Shown in pieces: positions 2,310-29,118 of a stretch of DNA of 31,660 nt. The stretch covers positions 1-31,660 of the forward strand of contig NW_021832179.1 in the NCBI RefSeq assembly GCF_006345805.1, given 5' to 3'. The notes under the pieces are model-generated. The model was not told where the DNA came from. It searched no databases and was given only the letters and a program-made list of their open reading frames with translations. The translations under genes were made by a program, and so were the position numbers. How positions within the stretch are numbered: position 1 is the first letter of the stretch; every line of letters starts with the position of its first letter. The DNA comes from Octopus sinensis. Lineage: Eukaryota.

Positions 2310-2719
2310 CTTCCTCCTCCTCTCCTTCTTTCTTCCTTCACTTCTTCTTTCTCTTCTTTCTCCACTTATCTACACCCTTTTCGTCCTGGGTTCTGCCATG
2401 CCGTGTGATTTGAGGTTTTGTGCATGCGAGCGTGTCTCTGTGTGTGTGTGTGTGTGTGTAACGTGAAAGCATACACATACTCGCAGACTCACACGAACAC
2501 ACACACACATATACATACGTATAGGTATGCAAATAGGTTATGTACATAGCCATACGCGCACCACGCGCACATATATGCGTAACAGACCAAAACTTCGGAG
2601 TCACTGTCCACACTTCTCTTGTAAAAATTTTCTACAAAAAGAGTAGTTCTTCAGTTAAAATGCAACATTTTTTTATCGCAATTCATCATAAATACAAACA
2701 TTAATGTAATTTTTATACG

Positions 2720-2946
<227 letters not shown>

Positions 2947-3667
2947 AAGTTTCTTTATTGGCCACACAGGGCTGCACACAGATGGGACAAGTTACAAGGT
3001 AGAGCTTTTCTTTTGGGGGATGAAAAAACAAAAAACAAAAAACAAAAGAAACAAAAAAAAGGTGGCGTAGGTTTTCGATCAAAAGGAATCGTAAAAGGGA
3101 AAAAAGAACAAAAAAAAAGGAAAAAAAAAAAGGAAAAGGAACAAAAGAAAAGAAAAATGAAAAAAGAAGAAAAAAGAAGAAAAAAGAGGAAAAAAGGGGA
3201 AGAGGGAAAAATACGATCAATAGGGATCGTGTATCACAGTATCATGATGTATGGTGTAAAGAGGAAAGCAAGTAAGGTTTATCCGTGGGAAGAAAAGCCT
3301 ACGAAAAAGACCACGGTAACCTTGGTCAATATTGTTATATGTTACCACATTTGTTTGCAAGTGGGTAACCCTCTGTTTTCAATTTCTGGGTTCATAGGAT
3401 TATGCTCAAGGTGGCTTCGTCATTCATACGTGCCATCCTTGCTACATTCACCCATCTTTTTTTAAAACATTCGCTAGACAAAACTTGCCTCTCTACTCTC
3501 ACTTTCCTTTTCAAGTGGTACTTGAAGAAATTGATGAGAGGTTGACCAGAGAGGAAAGTGTTTGTCTCCAATCCTTTCAGACGCGTCCACCAGATACATT
3601 CTTTCGCCATAGCCACAAGGATGATGAAAATAGCTCTTCCTTCCCGTTTGAAGGAAGGAGGCGTGAC
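2947..3667 (-). mobile_element. 5'-truncated L1/Tx1-clade LINE: ORF2 C-terminus (3392-3667) plus 3' UTR
   Basis: The peptide IILVAMAKECIWWTRLKG...LINFFKYHLKRKVRVE...FKKRW resembles Tx1/L1 ORF2 C-termini. The 3' end has AATAAA, and (GATA)n lies on both flanks. Confidence 0.7.
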
Positions 3668-3761: not shown

Positions 3762-3890
3762 GATGGGTTTCTTTCAGTTTCCGTCTGCCAAATCCATTCG
3801 GAAGGCTTTGGTTGTTCCGAGGCTATAATAGGAGACATATACCCAGAACCACGTGGCTGGGAAGCAGACTTCTTACCCCATAGCTACGCC
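3762..3890 (-). mobile_element. SINE family B 5' fragment, degenerate
   Basis: The segment ttctttcagtttccgtctgccaaatcc...gaaccacgtggctgggaagc matches the family B head. Confidence 0.8.
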
Positions 3891-4443
3891 TCAGATTTAG
3901 ATTATTGGATTAAATACAAAAAGTGTCAAAACAAAACGAGATCAATGGAAGCAATGTAACCAAAACTGGAAAGAAATCATTTCTTTGTATTTAATGGAAA
4001 CTTAGATTGCAACATGGCGGATTTGGAAGAGCGGAGGACTCCTAGAAGACCATCGGTCAGGATCACCAAGTTCTATCTAGAGAGTTATTGCAATGCATCA
4101 ATATATGTGTGGCGTCCAGGGTTGTGCAATCAGCTAATGAAAGATACATTATGAAACACGATTTCACAACAAAATCCGGTTAAAATACATAAAACAGACG
4201 ATAAAACATTATAAGTTCATTAACTAAAATTCTTGGGTAATATTTACTGAAATTATGTGAGTTTAGATATTTTTAATGAATTGTGCAATACATTATTGAT
4301 GTGTGAAGCCATTTGTGGATACATAACGCTGCAGGTGTCCAAGACGCACAGACCGACGCTCAGTCGTGAAACCACGCAATAAAACATTGCAACACTGAAA
4401 TGATAAATAAATAAATAAATGCTATAGAGAAAGTTGATAACCA

Positions 4444-5100
4444 AAAATGCGAATAAAACTCGAAGAACCTAGTTCAGAATTGGTAATGAAAGTTTCATTC
4501 CTTAACTGACAACTTCCAACTCAATACCCAAAATTAATTGAATTCTTCCACTTGGATTCTTCGCAGGAATTTTACATTGTCAAACAAAAGCAACAGGTCA
4601 ATTATCAACAGTAACCAATAATGAGGTAATAATCTTTAAGTAACACACCCACCCACCGCCACCAGGCTCCACCCTACCCTATCCATACAGTGACGCTTGC
4701 CCTTTTATTCAATTAATTAAACCCCTGGGAATGTCTCAATTTAAATATCTAATTATTATTTTTTCCTCTCGGATGATCCCATTGGTTCCCCGAAAAGCGA
4801 AAAAAAAAAAAAGAAAAAAGGAGTGCAGGTCATTCTTTTCTCCTTAAAGATCTGCTCGACCAGAACTTACTTACTTACATGGTGGCAACACATCAACGAT
4901 AGCGCCCCCTGTACAAGTATTTCGTGGGGAGGTAAATCATAATGGAAGGAGCAGTGATAGATCGGCGGGGAAATAAGGAGTTTTTCTCCACAATTTAATT
5001 AAAAGCTAATCACTTCTGATTTAAACAAATACCTTTAAAATCTTTATTCTGAAGACAATTATTATAAAAAACACGAATAACATTACATACTTATGTCTGT
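4444..5100 (-). repeat. Left arm of a long, diverged inverted repeat
   Basis: The reverse complement aligns collinearly with 6636-7236. A 36-bp block is identical (4736-4771 vs 6932-6967) and a 34-bp block matches at 32/34 (4886-4919 vs 6814-6847). Confidence 0.92.
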
Positions 5101-5104
5101 GGTT

Positions 5105-5330
5105 TATTATCCTAATCTCCACGAAATTATCTTAATCTCTACTAAGATATATCATATCGTAATAATCACTAAGTATAACCGTTACAAATTGTCATAATCT
5201 CCACTAAATTATCTTAATCTCTTATAAGATATATCACAAATTATCATATTCTCCTCTAAGTTATCGTAATATTTACTAAGATACATCACAACCTCTGCTA
5301 AATATAATCTTTACAAGTTGTCATAATCTT
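5105..5330. repeat. Degenerate ~20-bp minisatellite (ttatcataatctccactaaa-like)
   Basis: Recurrent units such as ttatcctaatctccacgaaa, ttatcttaatctctactaag and ttgtcataatctccactaaa. Confidence 0.75.
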
Positions 5331-5402
5331 CGCAGTTGCATTCTTCATTAAATTAACATGGCCGACACCAATTTCTTGTAATCTTCACATTATCGTAATA
5401 TA

Positions 5403-5567
5403 GATTTCGAATTTTGGCACAAGGCCAGCAATCTCGGGGGGAGCGGTAAGTAGATCACATCGACCCCAGTGCTTAACTGGTACCTATTTTATCGACTTCG
5501 AAAGGATGAAAGATAAAGTCGACCTCGGTGTAGTTTGAACTCATAACGTAGCGGCAGACGAAATACC
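5403..5567 (-). mobile_element. SINE family A (ggccttgtgccaaaatt tail), 5'-incomplete
   Basis: Contains the core atcgaccccagtg...gaaaggatgaaag..aaagtcgacctcgg. Confidence 0.85.
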
Positions 5568-5789
5568 AATTTCTTTACTACCCACAAGGGGCCAAACACA
5601 GAGAGGACAAATAAGGACAGACAAACGGATTAAGTCGATTATATCGACCCCAGTGCGTAACTGGTATTATTTAATCGACCCCAAAAGGATGATGAAAGGC
5701 AAGTCGACCTCGCGAATTTGAACTCAGAACAGTAACGGCAGACTAAATAGCGCTAAGCATTTCGCCCAGCGTACTAACGATTCTGCCAG
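5568..5789 (-). mobile_element. SINE family A with Tx1-like 3' tail
   Basis: Full body similar to 801-1015. Confidence 0.9.
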
Positions 5790-5927
5790 CGTCTCTTATT
5801 GTTCTTAGGCGACATATCAGACCCGCTGGCCGGGGGCACATAACTTCTCTACTAATGAGGTTATGTTAAGAGTTTATTTGTCATCGGCCAACGAGTCTGG
5901 TTTGTCGTCTAAGAACAATAATAGACG
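5790..5927. repeat. 138-bp hairpin or MITE-like inverted repeat (43-bp arms)
   Basis: 5790-5832 matches the reverse complement of 5885-5927 at 37/43, and there is additional inner pairing. Confidence 0.85.
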
Positions 5928-6073
5928 TAAAAAAGAGAAACAATGACCACTTTCTGACCGGCCATAACCAACAACTACATATAGCACGCACACACACACA
6001 CACACACACACATACACACACACATACACAAGCAAACACACACATACAGGTATATATATTTGTGTGTGCGCAT

Positions 6074-6493
6074 ACTCTTTCTTTTACTCTTTTCAGTCAT
6101 TTGACTGCGGCCATGCTGGAGCACCGCCTTTAGTCGAGCAAATCGACCCCGGGACTTATTCTTTGTAAGCCCAGTACTTATTCTATCGGTCTCTTTTGGC
6201 GAACCGCTAAGTGACGGGGACGTAAACACACCAGCATCGGTTGTCAAGCAATGCTAGGGGGACAAACGCAGACACACAAACACACACACATACATATATA
6301 TATATTATATAATATATATATATAACATAATACGACAGGCTTCTTTCAGTTTCCGTCTACCAAATCCACTCACAAGGCATTGGTCGGCCCGGGGCTATAG
6401 CAGAAGACACTTGCCAAGATGCCACGCAGTGGGATGAACCCGGAACCATGTGGTTGGTTAGCAAGCTACTTACGACACAGCCACTCCTGCGCC
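6074..6493 (-). mobile_element. Full-length SINE family B
   Basis: Head ggcgcaggagtggctgtgtcgtaagtagc with A/B-box-like motifs; tail gactgaaaagagtaaaag. Confidence 0.92.
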
Positions 6494-6635
6494 TACACGT
6501 TCAAATATATATTTGTATTCATACATACATACTTATATACATACAAACACGTGTGTGTGTGTTGTGTATGTGTGTCTAAAACATTAAGCAGCAATTATTT
6601 TCGCATAAACAGGTAAAGTTATCAATGGATTTCGC

Positions 6636-7236
6636 CAGAGATTTATAAAGTAATTCTATTAGTGTTTTTGTAATAATTGTCTTCAGAATTAGACTTAACG
6701 AAATTTGTTTCAGTCAGAAGAGGTTAGCTTTTTAATTAAAATGCTGGGAGAAAATATTTATTTTACTGATGTACCACTGTTCTTTACATAATGATTCCCC
6801 CCGCAGCCTGAACTACTTGTATAGGGGGCGCTATCGTTGCTGTGTTGTTAGGAAATAAGTTCTGGCCGAGCAGATTTTTAAGAAGAAAGAGTGATCGCAT
6901 ATTTTGCCGTTCAGAAAGCAACAGGATCGTTCGAGAGGAAAAAATAATAATTAGATATTTAAATTGAAATATTCCCAAGAGTTTAATTGACTAAATAAAA
7001 GGTTAAAATGTCGTATGGCGAGCGAAAAGCGGAGGCATTTAAAGACTATTATTTAAATAGTTGTTAATCTTCTTTGCTCTTCGTAATTGACCAGTAGTCT
7101 CTGTTAAACAATATAAAATTCCTGCCGGGAATCCAAGTGGAAGAGTTCAATTAATTTGAGGCTACTGAGATGTCAATTGAAGAATGAGAGTTCCGTACCA
7201 TTTCTGACAGAGTTCTTATGGTTCTATTCGCATTTT
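6636..7236 (+). repeat. Right arm of the long, diverged inverted repeat
   Basis: Aligns collinearly with the reverse complement of 4444-5100. Confidence 0.92.
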
Positions 7237-7626: not shown

Positions 7627-8780
7627 TATGTTTGACTTTTGCTTTATGTCTGTACAAGTTGGCTCCAAGTCTCACCCAGAGACCTCAAGAGACAACAGGT
7701 TAGAAGTTCTGTGCCATATATTTGGGGCTTTTTTTTTTTTTTGGTGTTGTACCAGTGAATGTCTAATGCATAAAAATAAAAAATAAACAAAAAAAAAATA
7801 AATAAAAATAAAAAATTTTAAAAAATTAAAAAATTTTTTTTTACCCTTTGGATTACATAGAGAGTATTTTGCGTAGGATATGAGCAGTTCCCATGAGCAC
7901 TATCTTTGAATTTCTGCCATTGGGGTTTCCTGGTATCTGAGTTAGGTAGCAATCAGTCCCTTTCGCTATCATTCCCAGGGCACCTATGACAACAGGTATT
8001 GTTTTGGTCTTCAGCTTCCACATTTTGCTGATTTCTATTTCAAGATCTTTATATTGCTCAGTTTTTGGTGGTCTTGACAGATACGTTTATATCGATTGGG
8101 ACAGTCATATCAATGAGGAGGCATGTTCTTTGTCTGAAGTCTTTCAATATGATGTCTGGCCTATTGCATCTATCTTCCTGTCAGTTGAATGGTGAAGTTC
8201 AGAGGAGTGAGATGTGGTCATTTTCAAGCACAGGAGGTGGATGTGTTCCCACCAGTTTTTTTCATGGGGCAATCCAGGTTTTTGCAAATTACCCAGTGAA
8301 TATATTGTGCTGCTCATACTACTGACCTACTGGGTACTCTGTAGGCGCTAGAAGACTGCATTTCGAGACAACATGGTCAATGGTTTCATTTTGTTGTCGG
8401 CATACACGACATGTTGGGCTACTGCCGTTCTTTAATATGTTGCCTGGTAGTTTCTTGTTGGTAGGCATTGATCTTGGGCTGCTATGATAAACCCCTCTGT
8501 TTCAGATTTTAAACCAGAGGCCATTAGCCATTGATGGGTCAGGGCTTTGTCGATATCTGCATTATTCGCTCTCTTTGGGTATTTGCCATAGAGAGGTTTT
8601 TCTTGCCATTTATTATTCAGAATATCTAAGGCCGCAGTTTTGGCACGGGTTTTCATGCGCTTAGCTTTTTCTGTGCTTGTTTCTTGTATGTCTATCTCTA
8701 ATTCCAAAATTGGTTGTATTCGGAATTCACTTAGATATTCCTTTGCCTGTTTTGTGACTGAGTAAGATGCTTTCTTGTTT
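7626..8780 (-). mobile_element. 5'-truncated R4/Dong-like non-LTR retrotransposon (RLE endonuclease), frameshifted; coding remnant 7853-8780
   Basis: Motifs include KWQEKPLYGKY, ETEGFIIAAQDQCLPTRNY, a CCHC finger CRVCRQQNETIDHVVSKC, RPDII...LIDMTVP (PD-D/E-xK type) and the C-terminus IVLMGTAHILRKILSM*. (TTA)n lies on both flanks. Confidence 0.9.
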
Positions 8781-8831
8781 TTATTATTATTATTATTATT
8801 ATTATTGTTATTCATTATTATATTATTATTA

Positions 8832-8879
<48 letters not shown>

Positions 8880-11523: not shown

Positions 11524-11903
11524 TTTGTTTGTAGAGCTGGTGTTTAATTAAGAGCAGTACTGTGACATTGTCATGGTAACAGGCTGTTTCAGTCCAGTCT
11601 ATTGCTGTGCCAGAAATTGCAATAGCTTAATCTAAACCCAGGGAGAGAAGGACAACCGAGCGATGGTATAAGTCAGACGGAGAAAAGGACACACAATAAC
11701 TCTTACTAAGCGAAGGAAATTTGATTGCTTTTTCTAGCAAGTTTAATGACTGAGTAAAGGTTCTCCACTTGGCAGGGCTGTTTGTAGTTAAAACATTTGG
11801 ACGCATGGCTTAACGGCTAAGTTTTCTTGGCAATTACGAGGTCCTCGGTTCGGTCTCACCTGGCGGCACTTAGCGTAAGTTGCTTATTTTCTATTATAAT
11901 CTA

Positions 11904-14589: not shown

Positions 14590-16395
14590 AAAGAACTGTG
14601 AGCGATTGGCGTTCGTGTTGCCAGCATTTTCTTTTTCGCGTTAATCATTATTTGATCCCTGTTAGACGTAAGTCACATTGTTGATTAATCGTTGAAGGTC
14701 TCCCGCAAGGGTGTACCTATTGTTTAACTACACTGTTGAATTTTTGAATTGCTAGGGGCTGTGTGTTTTTTTTCTGTTTTTTTTTTTTTTTTGCTGTGTT
14801 TTTATAATTGTTTTCTTTCCTATTTATGGGTGAAGTAGTGAAAAAAGGAAAGATGGAAAGCGAACCAGTCCCAGCCGGCAGCGGCTGGAAGAAGTTTAAC
14901 TGCAGAGATACAACAGGTTCGAGAGGTGAAGACGGAGAGAAAGACGGTAAAGGAGTTTAACAGACTGATCGAAAAGGAGGGAACCAGTTTGAGGTTGACC
15001 CCGCCACAAGAAATGACAGCTAGTGTGACGAGCGAACAGTGGTATATAGAACGCTGTCCACGGCAACGAAAAGAATTGAAATAGCTACGGTGGAAGCCAT
15101 GGAAGAGTGTTTAAAGGAGGTAAAGAGCCTCACAACATTCTATACCAGAGGGAAAAAATACGGCTCAGCGGAGGTAAGCTTCGCTAGCGAGCAACAAGCG
15201 ATAAACCACTCCACTGTGGCGCTAAGGACGCCAGAATGGGTACTACTGCCGACTTACTGTGGCAGACGATTGTCCAGGGTAAGGATAGGTAGAGTACCCC
15301 CGGAGACTGAGGAGGCGTGGCTGGTGGCTGCCATTATGTATAATACGGAGGAGGAAGCGAAAGTTTGAAAAGTAACGAGAAAAAAAGAGGTAAACTGATG
15401 GGGATACGGCCTCAAGGTGGCGCTTCAGGTCAGTTTTCAGGACCTACACAAGATAGCGGAGGAGGTGATACTGCCGGAGAAAGTGAGATTAAGAGTAGTG
15501 GTGGCGGGAAGACCTCCAACATGTGACCAGTGTGGAGCAAGGGTACACATGAGTGCAAGGTGTTCCCAGAATGACGAGAAAGGTGAACACGAACAGCAGC
15601 AACAGGGTGACGAGCAGGAGCAAAAATACCGAACTGGAGACCCCAGTGAGTGAGAAGTGTCCGGAGAAGGTGGAGGAGGAATATACGGTGGTAAATAGGG
15701 AAAAGAAAAGAAAGGAAAAGGTGGACTCATCGCCAAAGAGTCCACTAAAGAAGAGGAAGGAAAATAAAGAGGAAGAGACACAGAAGGAGATTCCAACAAC
15801 AACAACAAGGGAAGCCAACGTGGAAAATCAAGTGGAAATACAGGAACAAGTAACAAAAACAAAAAACGAAAAAAGAAATGGTGTATGGTGACATATTCGA
15901 AAAACACGGAAATTGAAAAGAGAATAACCAAAATGAAGTCGGTGGTGAGAGTGAAGTTAACAACGGAATATTATCCAGAGAACACCAACGCAATTGTGAT
16001 TGACCAAGAGAGATGTGCAAGATTGAGAGAATTGTTTGGAAATAAGAGAAACTCAGCAGGAGTACGCGAGGAGTTCGATGACTTGCTGCCAGTGATAGAT
16101 TATGAGGACCTAATACCGTACATAAAATGGTGAAAAAAAGTAAGAAAATATTTGGAATTTTAATGACAGTAAAACTGATACAAAAAGAGAAAAAAGAAAA
16201 AAAGATATAAAAATATTTAACTAAAACATTTAAAATGATATTGCTTGCGAGTGGGGAGCATGCAGCCATTTCACTTCCATTATTATAATTTATTCTTCAT
16301 TCATTCGTTTTATGTTTTATGTCCCCACTGTAGTGTCCTGTTTGTCCTTGTGCTGTCCCCTCTGCGTTACGGCCGTAGTGCTAAAAAAAAAAAGA
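14590..16395 (+). mobile_element. ORF1-only (HAL1-like) non-autonomous retroelement; decayed gag-like ORF ~14826-16288
   Basis: ORFs 15039-15368 and 15417-15653 share a frame and contain a CX2CX4HX4C knuckle (CDQCGARVHMSARC, 15522-15563), followed by a K/E-rich tail. No endonuclease or RT motifs were seen. A short 3' UTR with a tgtccttg..tgtcccctctg motif precedes a poly(A) at 16383-16393. The 5' boundary is approximate. Confidence 0.65.
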
Positions 16396-20050: not shown

Positions 20051-22129
20051 AAGTTATTTAGTTTTACAGAAAAGATGTATTTGAGATGCTGGCAACACCG
20101 GATACCTTAGCCTTTTTTTTTTTACTTATGTCCTCTTTAAACACAGTTGACAACCTTTACAGCAATGAGAGACGACTACAATATTTCTATGGGTACAGGA
20201 CTATCAAAATGAGAACTTAGTAGAACTTGTAACAACGAACTATCCACTTTTCAAGTGTTACTTTTGATTTGCACGCAAATAATTCCAGTCGTTACGGAAA
20301 ATGTCATGAAAAGCTTATGTACATTGCCATAAATTCTAACCACCCTCATATCACCTCTAAAGCCCTAATTAAAGGTATCAATGAATAAATTCCTAATATA
20401 CCTTCACACAAGTAACATTCGACAGAGCATCCAGTAACCACAATAGAGTCATAAAAATAGCAGTTTCAAAGTAAACAAAGAGTTTCACATGCAAAGGGAA
20501 ACAACCTACAAACGATGAAAGCACACGTACGCACACGTCTATGAGAACTACAAATCCAAACAAGAACAACATATCAGTTCTGTCGAGAAATGTTTGGTAT
20601 CTGAAATGGAAACACTGAATTCAAAATATTGTGGTATATTTTAGCCTGTAGTAATAGCTATTTCAACGGAACAACAGTCTGTAATGCCTGTTTTTAGGGA
20701 AAAAAACTCCGAATGAGAACTAAAATAACATTCATTCTAAATAGGAATTCCGAGTTTTTGTCCAAATGTCGTCACAAGAAAAAATTTTAACTGTTTAACT
20801 AAAAGACAGGACTAATCTGCCAAATAAAGATCACCACCTCACTGAATGTGTGTATGTTATGTGAGTGCCATCGTGCACGAGCGTGCGTGTATGCTTATGA
20901 GTGTATGTGTGTAAATATCAGCGAGAGAATCGATAATGTTCAAACGAATTCCCTTGTAATATTTTGTTCTGCACCGATTTACAAACACTCCATTTTTTCA
21001 CTATTGTAAGGTTTTTGGGAAATCTGCAAGAAGCCATATGGGATATATTTCACATGTAGAATATAATAAAGAAATCAGAAAACCCTGGAAGAATTGAGTT
21101 GAGTAAAAGAAAAAGGAGGGAAGAAACCAATTATTTTCGATTAAGTATCGAAAATAAGATTTTGAGAAAGAACTAATGAGTTAATTAACTCTAACCTATG
21201 ACGTTTGACTTTGAAATGGAAGCAGCGACATCTGTTGGGCGGGGTCACGAGAGGCTATGCTAGAATGTTTATGTAAATGATCCAGCTAATGAATTATATA
21301 ATAGGGTTAATTAATATTAATTTAAAGCCTGAAAATTAAAATAATTACAGTTAGAGATTAATCCTTAATAGAAAACAGTAATCACTCGGGCAGGATTATT
21401 GCTGTGTTAGAGTCAGAAAAGGAGAGACGAGAAGGGAGAGGTGAGGGGGTAGGAAAGGGAGAGGAGGAGGAGGAGAGCCTTGGCCTTTATGCACCCCCGC
21501 TGCTGCCGCCACCGCCACCACCTACACCACCATCATCAATTATTGCAGGGCGGACGAGTTGATCAAATGATCCATCCTCCATATGGACTTTAGACTTGCA
21601 GGAAATAGCAACCAAATCTCTCTAAAACTCACCTTTTACTGTCTTGAAAATGGAGGAGATATATATTCGGAAATAGAGTCTTATATATTGAAAGCGAGGA
21701 ATAGTCACGACTGGAACGTCCTTTATTATAAGTTTGTTCAATCTTTTTCTCAAATCGAGGAAGCATTCGTTATAGCATTCGACCCAAGTACTTCACGGGT
21801 ACTTTATTTTATCGACCCCAGAAGAATAAAAGGTAAAGTTGACCTCGGCAAAACTGAAATTTAGTCCGACGCACTAACGTTTTTGCCAATCCACTGTTTT
21901 AAAAGGGAAACATGGATTCCATCAAGATTTGAACTCTACGGTTTCATTCTTGCAGTCGGCGACCAAAGCCTTCCACTGCAAGAAGCAACAGAAGATAACC
22001 CGAATGGAACAGACATTAAATACGGGTTTCACAGTTTTGACACAATGCCAACAATTTCGGGCGAGTGGCTAAAATCGATTACATCGACCTCGGTGATCAA
22101 CTGGTATTCATTTTATCATCTTTCATCAC

Positions 22130-22250
22130 GTTAAACCGTTAATCCATACACATATTTTTCTCTCTTCGTTTTCTTCTCTCGCTCGCCATATTTTTCCCTC
22201 TCATCCTTTTCTGTCGAAGAGCATAGGCTCGGAACGCCAAAGACATATCC
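22130..22250 (+). mobile_element. Penelope-like pseudo-LTR fragment with degenerate hammerhead
   Basis: Reads ctttt CTGTCGA a gagc-atag-gctc GGAA CG CC aaag; homologous to 740-800 plus 1016-1060. Confidence 0.55.
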
Positions 22251-22254
22251 ATTA

Positions 22255-22955
22255 GTGACCGGACAATTTACCGTAAACAAATTAACCGTAGGACAATTGG
22301 CCGTAGGGCTATTCACCGTAAGACAATTCGCTGTACGGATATTTCGCTGCAAGGACCTTTTTCCGACGAAAACAGAATGTTGATTTTTGGTACGATTGCA
22401 GGGTTGTACGATCTAGAAATACATAAGAACTGGGCACGCGATGGAACAGTTAAGGTTTGTCCTGAAATTTATTATCAGTTATACGCTCTACATGTCAACA
22501 TAGGGCATGCATCCCACAAATTTACCATCTCCTTCTGAATAGGACTCTTGACATATACAAAGGTCTTTTCAAAAGGTTAAAGATTTGTTCGAATCCCTAA
22601 GACCCAGAAATATAATGATTGATTTTGAACAAGCTAGTTCTCTAAGTTTTTCTGACAATTTTCCACCTACAAATGTTAACAAGATGGGTTTTTTTTAATT
22701 TTTGTAAAAATGTTTACAGAAAGGCGACAGATTTTGGTCTTAAGGTGCGATATCAAACGGATTGTGATTTTAACAGAAAAGTAAAGTGCTTTATGGCAAT
22801 TACATTCATCCCGCCTCCAGACACCATCGATGCATTTATGGAGTTTATGGGTGACGATGACTTGCCACAAAAACTGGTGGTATATTTTGAAAAGCATTAC
22901 ATTGGTGGCGAGAGAGGCAGGGAAGCTCGTAGACGTAGAGTTTCTCCTACTTTTC
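22255..22955 (+). mobile_element. Decayed MULE (Mutator-like) transposon: 15-bp subterminal repeats (22260-22360) plus transposase remnant
   Basis: About 6 copies of ggacaattcaccgta-like units. Peptides include DGTVKVCPEIYYQLYALH, IMIDFEQA, FNFCKNVYRK..GLKVRY...MAITFIP and VYFEKHYIG. Confidence 0.85.
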
Positions 22956-23640
22956 GAAGTGTGGAATTCAATTGTTTTGGTTCAGAGACGGTGGCGTGCA
23001 TGGAAAGGTAAGCATGCAACACTACGTCCGGAGACAATAAGAAGTTGTCATGCAAAGCTGATGACTACGGGCAAAAAGAAGTGGCCGTCCAACCACGTCC
23101 CGATGGGTGGAGAACGTGACAACAGTGCAGAAAATGTTTAATCGCGGCCCGAAAAAAATCAATACGTTAAACAACTCGTGAAAGTGGACTAACAAGATAC
23201 ACAATACGTACGGTGTTGCATAAAGAATTGAATTTCCGTCCGAGGAAACCCCATTACGTGTAGGAGGTAAAACCTGAAGACTGTGATCGCAAAAGTCCAG
23301 AAGTTCAGAACTCCAAGAAGTCCAAATCTCACTCCATGTAATTATTTTTATCTGTGGGGTTACACAAAAGAGGTAATGTACAAGACAAAACTTCGTACCC
23401 TGGAGGACTTGGAGACACGAATCGGGAGGTTCTCGGTGATATCCGAGACAATGTCCTTCAGAAGGTTGTTCATTCCATCCGTGGCCGTTTGTAGAAACTA
23501 GTTGGTACCACTGGTGCTTACGTTGAAATATGAAGATATACTTTCATTGACCCATATAATAAAGAACATGGATCATTTTATTTCACTAAATTTGTAAAAG
23601 GAACATGGGTTTTATTACCAATTTTTAATGCCTACTCACT
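22950..23640 (+). pseudogene. Decayed, internally deleted Tc1/mariner-superfamily transposase (DUF4817-type N-terminus)
   Basis: Peptides NSIVLVQRRWR...PETIRSCHAKLMTTG and TPRSPNLTPCNYFYLWGYTKEVMYKTKLRTLEDLETRI, which is WPPRSPDLTPCDFFLWG-like. Confidence 0.85.
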
Positions 23641-26382: not shown

Positions 26383-28320
26383 AGGAGATAAATAAAAATA
26401 TATGCATACATACAAACATATATGTACGTACCTACATCTACATGTATATATACATGCATAATAAATAATTATACGGAAGTACAGGACATCACAATAAGAC
26501 GTAGAGAAACAAAAAAGCCAAAAAACAAAAAACAAAGAAAAAACGGAAAACGAAAAACAAATACAGGACAGGTTACACAAGGCAAAACCCCCGTCATCAG
26601 CTGTCGCTAGAGGAGTCAGGCATGTTCGAAGGCATAACAGAACACTAATCCAATAGGCCTTCCTGCGAGAGAATAAAAATAAAATTTCAAGCAGCGGGGC
26701 ACAATGAGTACGAACACAACAAGACGTAACAATAAGACTGCAAAATTAAAATACATGTACAAAAACACACAAGAGGACGAACGAAAAAGCCTTTTTTCTG
26801 GCATAGACAAACAATAAAACTGCAAAAATAAAAATACATGTACAAAAAGTACAATTAGTTACAAAACGAGAAAATAACAAGAATACATACAGGAAATTAA
26901 CCACACAAGGGGACGAACGAAGAAAAGCCTTTTGCTGGCAAGGACGAAAGGTGTAGTAGCAGCGCGTGGAGGCAGTCTTTTCAATAGTGGTAAGTGGTAC
27001 ACGTGTAAAGGAATTTGTTTTATAGGCAAGGAAGAGGAAGGAGGAGGGGGACACGCGGCGAAGAGAGAGGAGGAGGGGGAGGGAGAAAGATTGAAGAGGT
27101 TAAAGCAAAGGGAGAGAGTACCGCATCTTCAATATAATAAATTAATATAAAAAAGGGGACCAAGAAGTGGATCGAAACGACGAATCGGAACGAACCTGAT
27201 GCGGGGCGCTGTCAGACAATAAGGAGATAAATAAATAAAAATATATGCATACATACAAACATATATGTACGTACCTACATCTACATGTATATAACATGCA
27301 TATATAAATAATTATACGGAAGTACAGGACATCACAATAAGACGTAGAAACAGAAAAAAGAACCAAAAACAAAAAACAAAGAAAACGGAAAACGAAAAAC
27401 AAATACAGGACAGGTTACACAAGGACAAAACCCCCGTCATCAGCTGTCGCTAGAGGAGTCAGGCATGTTCGAAGGCATAACAGAACACTAATCCAATAGG
27501 CCTTCCTGCGAGAGAATTAAAATAAAATTTCAAGCAGCGGGGCACAATGAGTACGAACACAAACAAGACGTAACAATAAGACTGCAAAATTAAAATACAT
27601 GTACAAAAACAAACACAAGAGGACGAACGAAAAAGCCTTTTTCTGGCATAGACAAACAATAAAACTGCAAAAATAAAAAAACAAAGTTAATCCAAACAAG
27701 AAAACACAGAAAAAAAGAGAAAAAAAACACAGCAACGCAGGACGTGGAACAAAAATGGGACAAGAACACAAAAACATCCACACAATTAGATGATACAAAA
27801 AAGGGACAACAAAACACTTAGATAGACGATACAAATAAGGCAAGGATGGGGCATTCGGAGTTTTCTTTCCTCAGTCGAGTTCCATATTATCTTTTCAATT
27901 TCGGCAGGTTATACTCGAGTTTGCTCTAATCTACCCAGCCCCAAGGAAAACTAAGCTAAGAGTATTAGATTCCTTGGAAGAAAGCAGTGAATTTATACGA
28001 AAACAAGGACGAAAAAAAGAAACGGAGAACGTTACACAAATACAAATAACAGGACATAACAACAGGTGTCTTTCGACTAAGGACGAATTAAATTAAGCTG
28101 GCATATGTTGAAATAAAGCCTTACGGCAGGGATACAAGATTTCACAGGCACAGGGAGGAAAATAGATGTTGCACGGACGACGGCCGAACCAAGAAAGAAA
28201 GATCAGGCTTGGCCGAACACCGGTAACTTGGGGAGAGAAGAAAGAGGGAGAGGAGAGAGGTAGAGGCAGAGGGACAAAAGAATTAAGGAGGGGCAAGAGA
28301 AAATGACAGGGACACAGTGA
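26383..28320 (-). mobile_element. Non-coding Penelope-like composite repeat with ~450-bp direct repeats (26383-26835 and 27222-27680)
   Basis: Two highly similar blocks lie ~840 bp apart. 27684-27750 shares agttaatccaaaca.gaaaacac...ggacgtggaacaaa with the pseudo-LTR family at 247 and 18151. Hammerhead-like segments are present. Confidence 0.65.
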
Positions 28321-28419
28321 AATTAAAAGAGAAGGGAAAGTGAGCAAGAAGAGAAGGCAGACACACACACACACACATGCACGGTTGGTGCGCAAAGTAC
28401 TGTTGGGAAACAAATCTTT

Positions 28420-29118
28420 CGATCATTAGGGGGTAACAATTCAAAGAGAATTACTCCTTTGCAATCCCACCAGATAGAGAGAAGAACCTTTTTCCCATGA
28501 AGTTCCCTTCTCGGTTGTGGTTGAGCCTTTTCCCTTTTACCAAGCCACTGTTTACGACGTTTAACATTTCGATAGAAGATCCATTTTTCGTCACCAGTCA
28601 CAAGTCAATCCAAAAAGGGCGAAATGCGTTCGCGAGAATGGAGAGAAGAGCAGATGTCAACTCGGGATTTGCGGTTGCTTTTGGACAATTCATGAGGCAC
28701 CCATTTTCCAAGTTTAGGAACCTTTCCAAGTTGTTGAGGATGACGATGAACAGTTGTATGGTTTGAAATCTCCACTTCTGAATTTTGCAAACCATATTCT
28801 GCAAGTTCTTTCATTCAAGCATTCTTTTCCATAAACTGAGTGCATGTTTCGAGTCGCTTCGGCTGCAGAGTTTTGTTTTTTGTACTCATAAAGCATTATG
28901 TGCCTTAAATGCTCTTTGGATACTTCCATGTTAGAAAGGGTTTTAATGAAAGAAATTTTAATTTTATTATTCTGTAAAATTATATTTAATTAGTTTAAAT
29001 GTACACAAATGTATAAAAATCATTTTTAATTCCATTAGACATTCTAAAATACTATTAAATTTCATTCAATTTTTTTTTAAATGGTAAAATCAGACAGAAC
29101 TTATGGGATGACCTGATA
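28420..29118 (-). mobile_element. Mariner transposon, 5' half, with 5' TIR; transposase pseudogene from 28929
   Basis: TA plus tcaggtcatcccataa TIR ending at 29118. Peptides MEVSKEHLRHIMLYEY..., WVPHEL, VTGDEKW and KKVLLSIWWDCKGV, with a frameshift, a stop and an internal deletion. Confidence 0.93.

Follow-up and report, generated by a model that had tools for sequence, protein, structure and literature searches.

The inverted arms and their spacer

The window (the whole stretch of Octopus sinensis DNA that was analyzed, 31,660 nucleotides) contains no long ORF, and SINEs, microsatellites and fragments of transposons abound in it. Two non-coding arms lie in it, a left arm at 4444–5086 (+) and a right arm at 6650–7236 (−), and the locus is a real, old, local inverted duplication of non-coding sequence. 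The pair 4444–5086 versus 7236–6650 appeared in self-BLAST as one inverted match, with 649 columns, 70% identity when gaps are counted and E = 1e-69. In a global alignment 453 of the 572 aligned columns are identical (79%), and the arms differ by 67 transitions, 52 transversions and 19 gaps, 11 of them of one base. The original prediction described the arms as diverged reverse complements with inner ends at 5100 and 6636; the relationship is borne out by both alignments, which place these ends at 5086 and 6650 instead. Two islands that it listed were recovered exactly in the global alignment, one with 36/36 identical bases (4736–4771 versus 6967–6932) and one with 32/34 (4886–4919 versus 6847–6814). 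The homology has sharp ends and the flanks share none, as none of five flank extensions rose above shuffled controls (P 0.25–0.84). Within the 31.7-kb window no further match to either arm was found except for A-rich runs.

Analysis of the arm sequences gives no coding signal. Stop codons occur in 12 of 12 block-frame tests and a synonymous excess is absent. One coding frame, ending in IQVEEFN and a stop codon in both arms, was tried and rejected; its best case gives 3 synonymous versus 6 non-synonymous codon changes and a shared splice acceptor is absent. At the gathering score Rfam has no match in the whole window, and its nine sub-threshold matches in the window are all outside the arms, the best of them (33 bits versus 80) being on the hairpin at 5790–5927 described below. 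Self-folding of the left arm gave no signal (z = 0.75). The absence of SINE insertions in the arms is expected by chance (P = 0.45) and therefore unremarkable. The 36-bp island has no match in JGI metagenome contigs, as animal DNA should give.

The spacer consists mostly of SINEs and satellites, as predicted. It contains a 52-bp minisatellite at 5106–5330, seen by self-comparison, followed by two abutting SINE pieces at 5397–5790, which are of very high copy and which we assign to the minus strand by what we take to be a tRNA-like head. A second SINE type occupies 6079–6543 (SINE piece 6079–6480), with CA/TA microsatellites inside and flanking it. In run X5, which is from organism A, the SINE bins reach a summed depth of 1e5–1e7, i.e. 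10^4–10^6 times the depth of the left arm.

Between the SINEs there is a 138-nt hairpin (5790–5927) that was absent from the original prediction. Its arms are identical at 43 of 53 positions (81%), close to the 79% of the outer arms, and together with its flanks it is predicted to form a long stem of −80 kcal/mol (z −7.9, reached by 0 of 200 shuffles). The outer arm ends are centred on 5840 and the inner ones on 5868; the hairpin has its centre at 5858, between these two points and no more than 20 bases from the middle of the large repeat. Such centring may be due to chance, because SINEs of unequal length inserted on either side. Neither of two sequence comparisons between the hairpin and the arms rose above shuffles. 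At 80% likeness the hairpin is low copy, with its middle bin at ~2 times the baseline depth in X5; the adjoining stretch 5915–5980 has a cover of ~15 times the baseline and is another low-to-moderate repeat. In a comparison with known octopus microRNAs, two hairpin motifs had no match in 24,410 characters of the PMC9699675 supplements, too little text to be informative. The hairpin could be a fold-back seed, an unrelated old MITE or a small-RNA precursor.

Several other features were found outside the inverted pair. Just left of the left arm, 4025–4164 is a short, moderately repeated element with a summed depth of 2400–3400 in X5, and a THAP-like reading of this left flank was dropped because the stretch is that element. 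What we take to be a YY1-like word stands near it, at 4011. A second inverted pair (23683–23896/24462–24669) is 80% identical, is not patchy and has partial copies at 21584–21650 and 11713–11763; it is probably the termini of a dispersed repeat. Two direct duplications, at 26388–26838/27231–27683 and 9907–10046/11004–11141, are young, with 96% identity in each, and there is also a broken mariner transposase at 28323–28989 (−) with the Pfam domains Transposase_1 and HTH_48 in separate frames. Pfam, run on 18 of the 73 window ORFs, gave mariner domains only, far from the inverted pair. The ORF fragments at 8000–8833, 14820–16130 and 22227–23543 are matched by none of the Pfam domains and presumably resemble LINE and DNA-transposon proteins.

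Copy number and occurrence in other organisms

Copy number was assessed from the genomic contigs of 4 of 24 listed runs, which were placed on 3885–5980 at 80% likeness and covered 894 of 1563 spacer bases; the right arm was assessed solely through its cross-match to the left arm. Summed contig depth is not a copy number, and contigs were silently dropped, with two of the four predicted right-arm blocks and the left arm of organism G missing; cover-free bins in X14, X11 and X20 were not counted as absence. In X5 the cover of the left arm is that of a single contig, with two contigs, 4041–4765 and 4736–5425, tiling it at a depth of 9.97 and then 12.8. The break between them at the 36-bp island is expected if a second locus carries the same island. 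Once these tiling contigs are subtracted, a surplus depth is left in 4 of 10 arm bins (+10.0, +2.5, +3.0 and +10.2), and the surplus bins coincide with the outer blocks predicted for the right arm (4531–4604 and 4701–4779). The residual cover that is unaccounted for is ~3 in bin 4515 and ~5 in bin 4725.

We infer from these data that the arms are low-copy. The original prediction had named as its own counter-case that the arms are two members of a high-copy dispersed repeat; what was found instead is a left-arm cover made up of the left arm and the right arm (X5 and X14, 80% likeness). In simulations each further copy at 79% identity is detected with a probability of 0.56–0.78 before filtering loss, and, assuming that half of the contigs are lost, further arm copies of this age would roughly number fewer than ~10.

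These numbers bear on a different explanation, in which the arms belong either to one ancient transposon of the foldback or Mutator-like kind, as its long TIRs, or to an old repeat family of low copy number, as two of its members. Long-TIR foldback transposons such as FB, Galileo and Mutator-like elements consist of a spacer between inverted arms that are several hundred bases long, and the octopus locus is alike in this respect. The sharp arm ends with non-homologous flanks would fit such an element, as would the hairpin of similar age at the centre and a 6-bp direct repeat (AAGTTG), whose copies are 7 and 6 bases away from the arm ends on the outer side. However, a 6-bp direct repeat so near is found in 19% of random end pairs, and the bases between the repeat and the arms mismatch. 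Families diverged past ~75% would mostly be missed by contig placement (simulated detection 0.23–0.54 before filtering), yet at 79% identity, where detection per copy is higher, the arm in X5 is left with no more than one or two small pieces that are unexplained. Between the arms no transposase remnant was seen, and the sole spacer ORF of at least 90 aa is inside a SINE, although non-autonomous copies need no transposase. Unlike FB, Galileo and Mutator-like elements, the locus showed no dispersed family at 80% likeness; a convincing target duplication and a transposase remnant inside are both absent, and the arms have no subrepeats. The low copy number, together with the want of a convincing target duplication, makes a multi-copy family behind the foldback transposon of the original prediction less likely; a lone relic is possible, and we consider the transposon explanation as a whole to be unlikely.

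The left arm is present in organisms A–G. In the best runs its word share (66 sampled words) is 0.68–0.97 for organisms A–D, 0.36 for E and 0.35 for F, and in organism G a share of 0.32 was found in 6 runs from 3 studies; the shares of E, F and G correspond to ~3.3–3.6% divergence (F 3.3%, G ~3.6%). None of the listed runs that contain the arm is recorded as RNA, which says nothing about expression. Three bins of organism G (X14) have values of 6.79, 2.51 and 3.02, which convert to a depth of 8.80, 8.79 and 8.81 for one contig lying over the exact bases predicted for right-arm blocks; this depth pattern suggests that organism G also carries the right arm, and with these blocks in it. The distance between the arms (0.244) is 4–7 times that between the sampled species (0.037–0.065), and therefore the duplication is old, well before the sampled species split.

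Between-species divergence can also be compared between arm and spacer. For organism F, 9/135 and 8/153 sites of the spacer pieces are different from those of the window. When the arm divergence of F taken from the word share (3.3%) is set against 16/257 in the spacer, part of which is minisatellite, the predictive P is 0.047–0.06. One arm piece of F was placed directly (run X20, chosen for containing the arm; it is guessed to be RNA but may be DNA, and is not counted as a sign of expression); it is 126 nt long (4659–4784), has a depth of 3.5 and shows 4 differences, and 4/126 versus 16/257 in the spacer pieces gives no difference (P = 0.33).

The window differs from X5 of organism A at no more than 4/643 positions in the arm, 14/339 in the spacer and no more than 2/403 in the left flank. 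To the left of 4966, X5 is almost the same as the window; to the right (4966–5425) the two differ by ~4%, and there arm and spacer divergence are alike (P = 0.58). The low difference in the arm is common to the left flank, and therefore it reflects a haplotype switch near 4966 and not constraint; arm polymorphism as a sign of constraint was ruled out by the equally low left flank. At 5065–5066 the X5 allele is the right-arm sequence, and therefore the window holds the derived state.

Conserved blocks and CTCF-like cores

The similarity between the arms is concentrated in four blocks on the plus strand of the left arm. Block 1 (4531–4604) is 84% identical and ungapped, with its partner at ~7157–7084. 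Block 2 (4701–4779) is 89% identical, ungapped, partnered by ~7002–6924, and contains the 36/36 island, which is AT-rich. Block 3 (4837–4923) is identical at 89% of the aligned columns and block 4 (4994–5086) at 86%. The blocks are interleaved with four stretches of 76, 67, 69 and 66% identity, and the five gaps of at least 7 bases are all outside the blocks save one of 8 bp, with the blocks having been defined after the alignment. Blocks other than block 3 are AT-rich with what we take, by resemblance only, to be homeodomain-like and TATA-like words.

The patchiness was compared with 600 uniform-rate simulations, matched in identity and re-aligned. The longest identical run of 36 has a P of 0.008 and the three longest identical runs a P of 0.003, whereas block dispersion alone is not significant (P = 0.063); in a separate run the P values were similar across five settings. 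As a control, 12 other repeat pairs of the window were taken through the comparison, and P ≤ 0.05 was reached by 3/12 for the three longest runs, by 2/12 for the longest run and by 2/12 for dispersion. The patchiness of the arms is real, yet it is within the range that ordinary repeats sometimes reach, and the excess over the uniform model is modest. The original prediction suggested selection on paralogous cis-regulatory modules; the patchiness (P 0.003–0.06) and an arm divergence below that of the spacer (P ~0.05) point weakly to such selection, but 3/12 neutral pairs are patchy likewise.

One explanation for the blocks is that the same local inverted duplication is functionless, and that they reflect mutational heterogeneity, alignment artefact or occasional gene conversion between the nearby arms. 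The modest patchiness and the borderline or null results of the arm-versus-spacer divergence tests agree with it. Moreover, the window contains two more inverted pairs of similar identity (the hairpin, 81%, and 23683–23896/24462–24669, 80%), and therefore such scars are common here. The longest-run statistics (P 0.003–0.008) argue against this explanation, and so does the location of nearly all gaps of 7 bases or more outside the blocks, although the blocks were drawn after alignment. Gene conversion would leave the between-species divergence unlowered, yet the word share of organism F hints that it is lower (P ~0.05). We see a functionless duplication as possible but on the doubtful side.

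Another hypothesis, also raised in the original prediction, is that selection on a long RNA duplex, ADAR-edited or Dicer-cut, holds the arms complementary. One transcript over both arms could, according to folding prediction, pair ~490 bases with −533 kcal/mol. However, the two strands are equal in duplex energy (−533 versus −536 kcal/mol), and G-U-compatible mismatches number 32 versus 35 by strand, with no bias. Inverted SINE pairs that lie closer together (87% over 240 nt) would be better substrates and therefore the pairing ability of the arms is not special; in addition, the blocks read better as identical motifs than as stems. Selection on a duplex finds no support here and is highly unlikely.

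Block 3 contains a CTCF-like core in both arms. The candidate core in the left arm, CAGGGGGCGC, is at 4902–4911 (−) and points left, and the candidate core in the right arm, TAGGGGGCGC, is at 6822–6831 (+) and points right, so that the two are 1.9 kb apart and diverge, facing outward by the usual strand convention. Both correspond to YAGRKGGCRS, which we take to be the last 10 of the 14 letters of the CTCF consensus; they are without the 5' CC of this consensus and match it at 10/14 letters, the comparison being with a consensus string and not a coleoid matrix. In the 31.7-kb window the 10-mer has two matches, one per arm, with 0.63 expected, and 11 of 100 shuffles had as many. The motif was spotted post hoc, and the two sites represent one ancestral site. 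For any inverted duplication the outward orientation has even odds.

CTCF-like motifs are reported at squid TAD boundaries (Schmidbaur et al., 2022; PMC9023564) and for the loop anchors of coleoids (PMC13652810), and the TAD boundaries of vertebrates are described as having divergent pairs of CTCF sites (Ghirlando and Felsenfeld, 2016; PMC4840295). Like the vertebrate pairs, the two sites of the octopus locus, which are 1.9 kb apart, point away from each other. Unlike them, the octopus sites match the consensus at 10 of 14 letters, and according to a review, orientation-dependent loop extrusion in invertebrates is without direct evidence, the squid boundary-motif enrichment being the only spiralian hint at that time (PMC10658181). 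It may be that the inverted duplication turned one CTCF-containing element into divergent sites that form a two-way chromatin boundary kept by octopods; this is quite unlikely. A gene to be regulated was not found in the window.

Origin of the duplication and its meaning

The explanation that we prefer, tentatively and a little short of calling it probable, is an inverted duplication with partly constrained paralogous DNA elements that serve as protein-binding modules. One DNA-repair or replication event, either a staggered-break micro-inversion or a template switch, would have copied a unique ~640-bp element nearby in inverted orientation. The copying would predate the split of the sampled species, and the spacer would later have been filled by SINEs and satellites. 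The element probably works as DNA, in the form of paired paralogous protein-binding modules, in which the four blocks would change more slowly than the intervening sequence and one block would retain the outward CTCF-like core in both copies.

For the origin, the closest model is the staggered-break model, in which inverted duplications of non-repetitive sequence arise at inversion breakpoints (Ranz et al., 2007; PMC1885836). By self-BLAST and contig depth the arms are inverted copies of non-repetitive sequence, and like the cases of that model they are two copies of otherwise unique sequence around a segment; their ends are sharp and they bear none of the hallmarks of a transposon. Unlike these cases, the bracketed segment is 1.5 kb long (less before the SINEs) and holds no gene, and the inversion of the spacer relative to an outgroup is only presumed.

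For the function, the arms can be compared with the coleoid conserved non-coding elements (PMC9023564; PMC13652810). Like them, they are non-coding, non-repetitive, low-copy, longer than 100 bp and present in related species, and have a CTCF-like core. The coleoid elements, however, were defined by cross-species alignment together with Hi-C or Micro-C, whereas the signal here is paralogous, comes from sequence only, and its conservation above neutral is borderline. In the full-text literature that was searched, which is not searchable by sequence and excludes most subscription papers, there was no account of the locus or of a mollusc boundary born by inverted duplication.

If the arms are neutral, they are a common genome scar, of little consequence. 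Given constraint on the blocks, the two paralogs would mark functional motifs base by base, in a lineage with a regulatory code that has hardly been mapped. The divergent CTCF-like pair lies in a compact 2.8-kb unit that would be easily compared with the Micro-C and ATAC data already available, and the boundary reading, if true, would represent the birth of a boundary at the level of sequence and would put orientation-dependent loop extrusion directly to the test in a mollusc.
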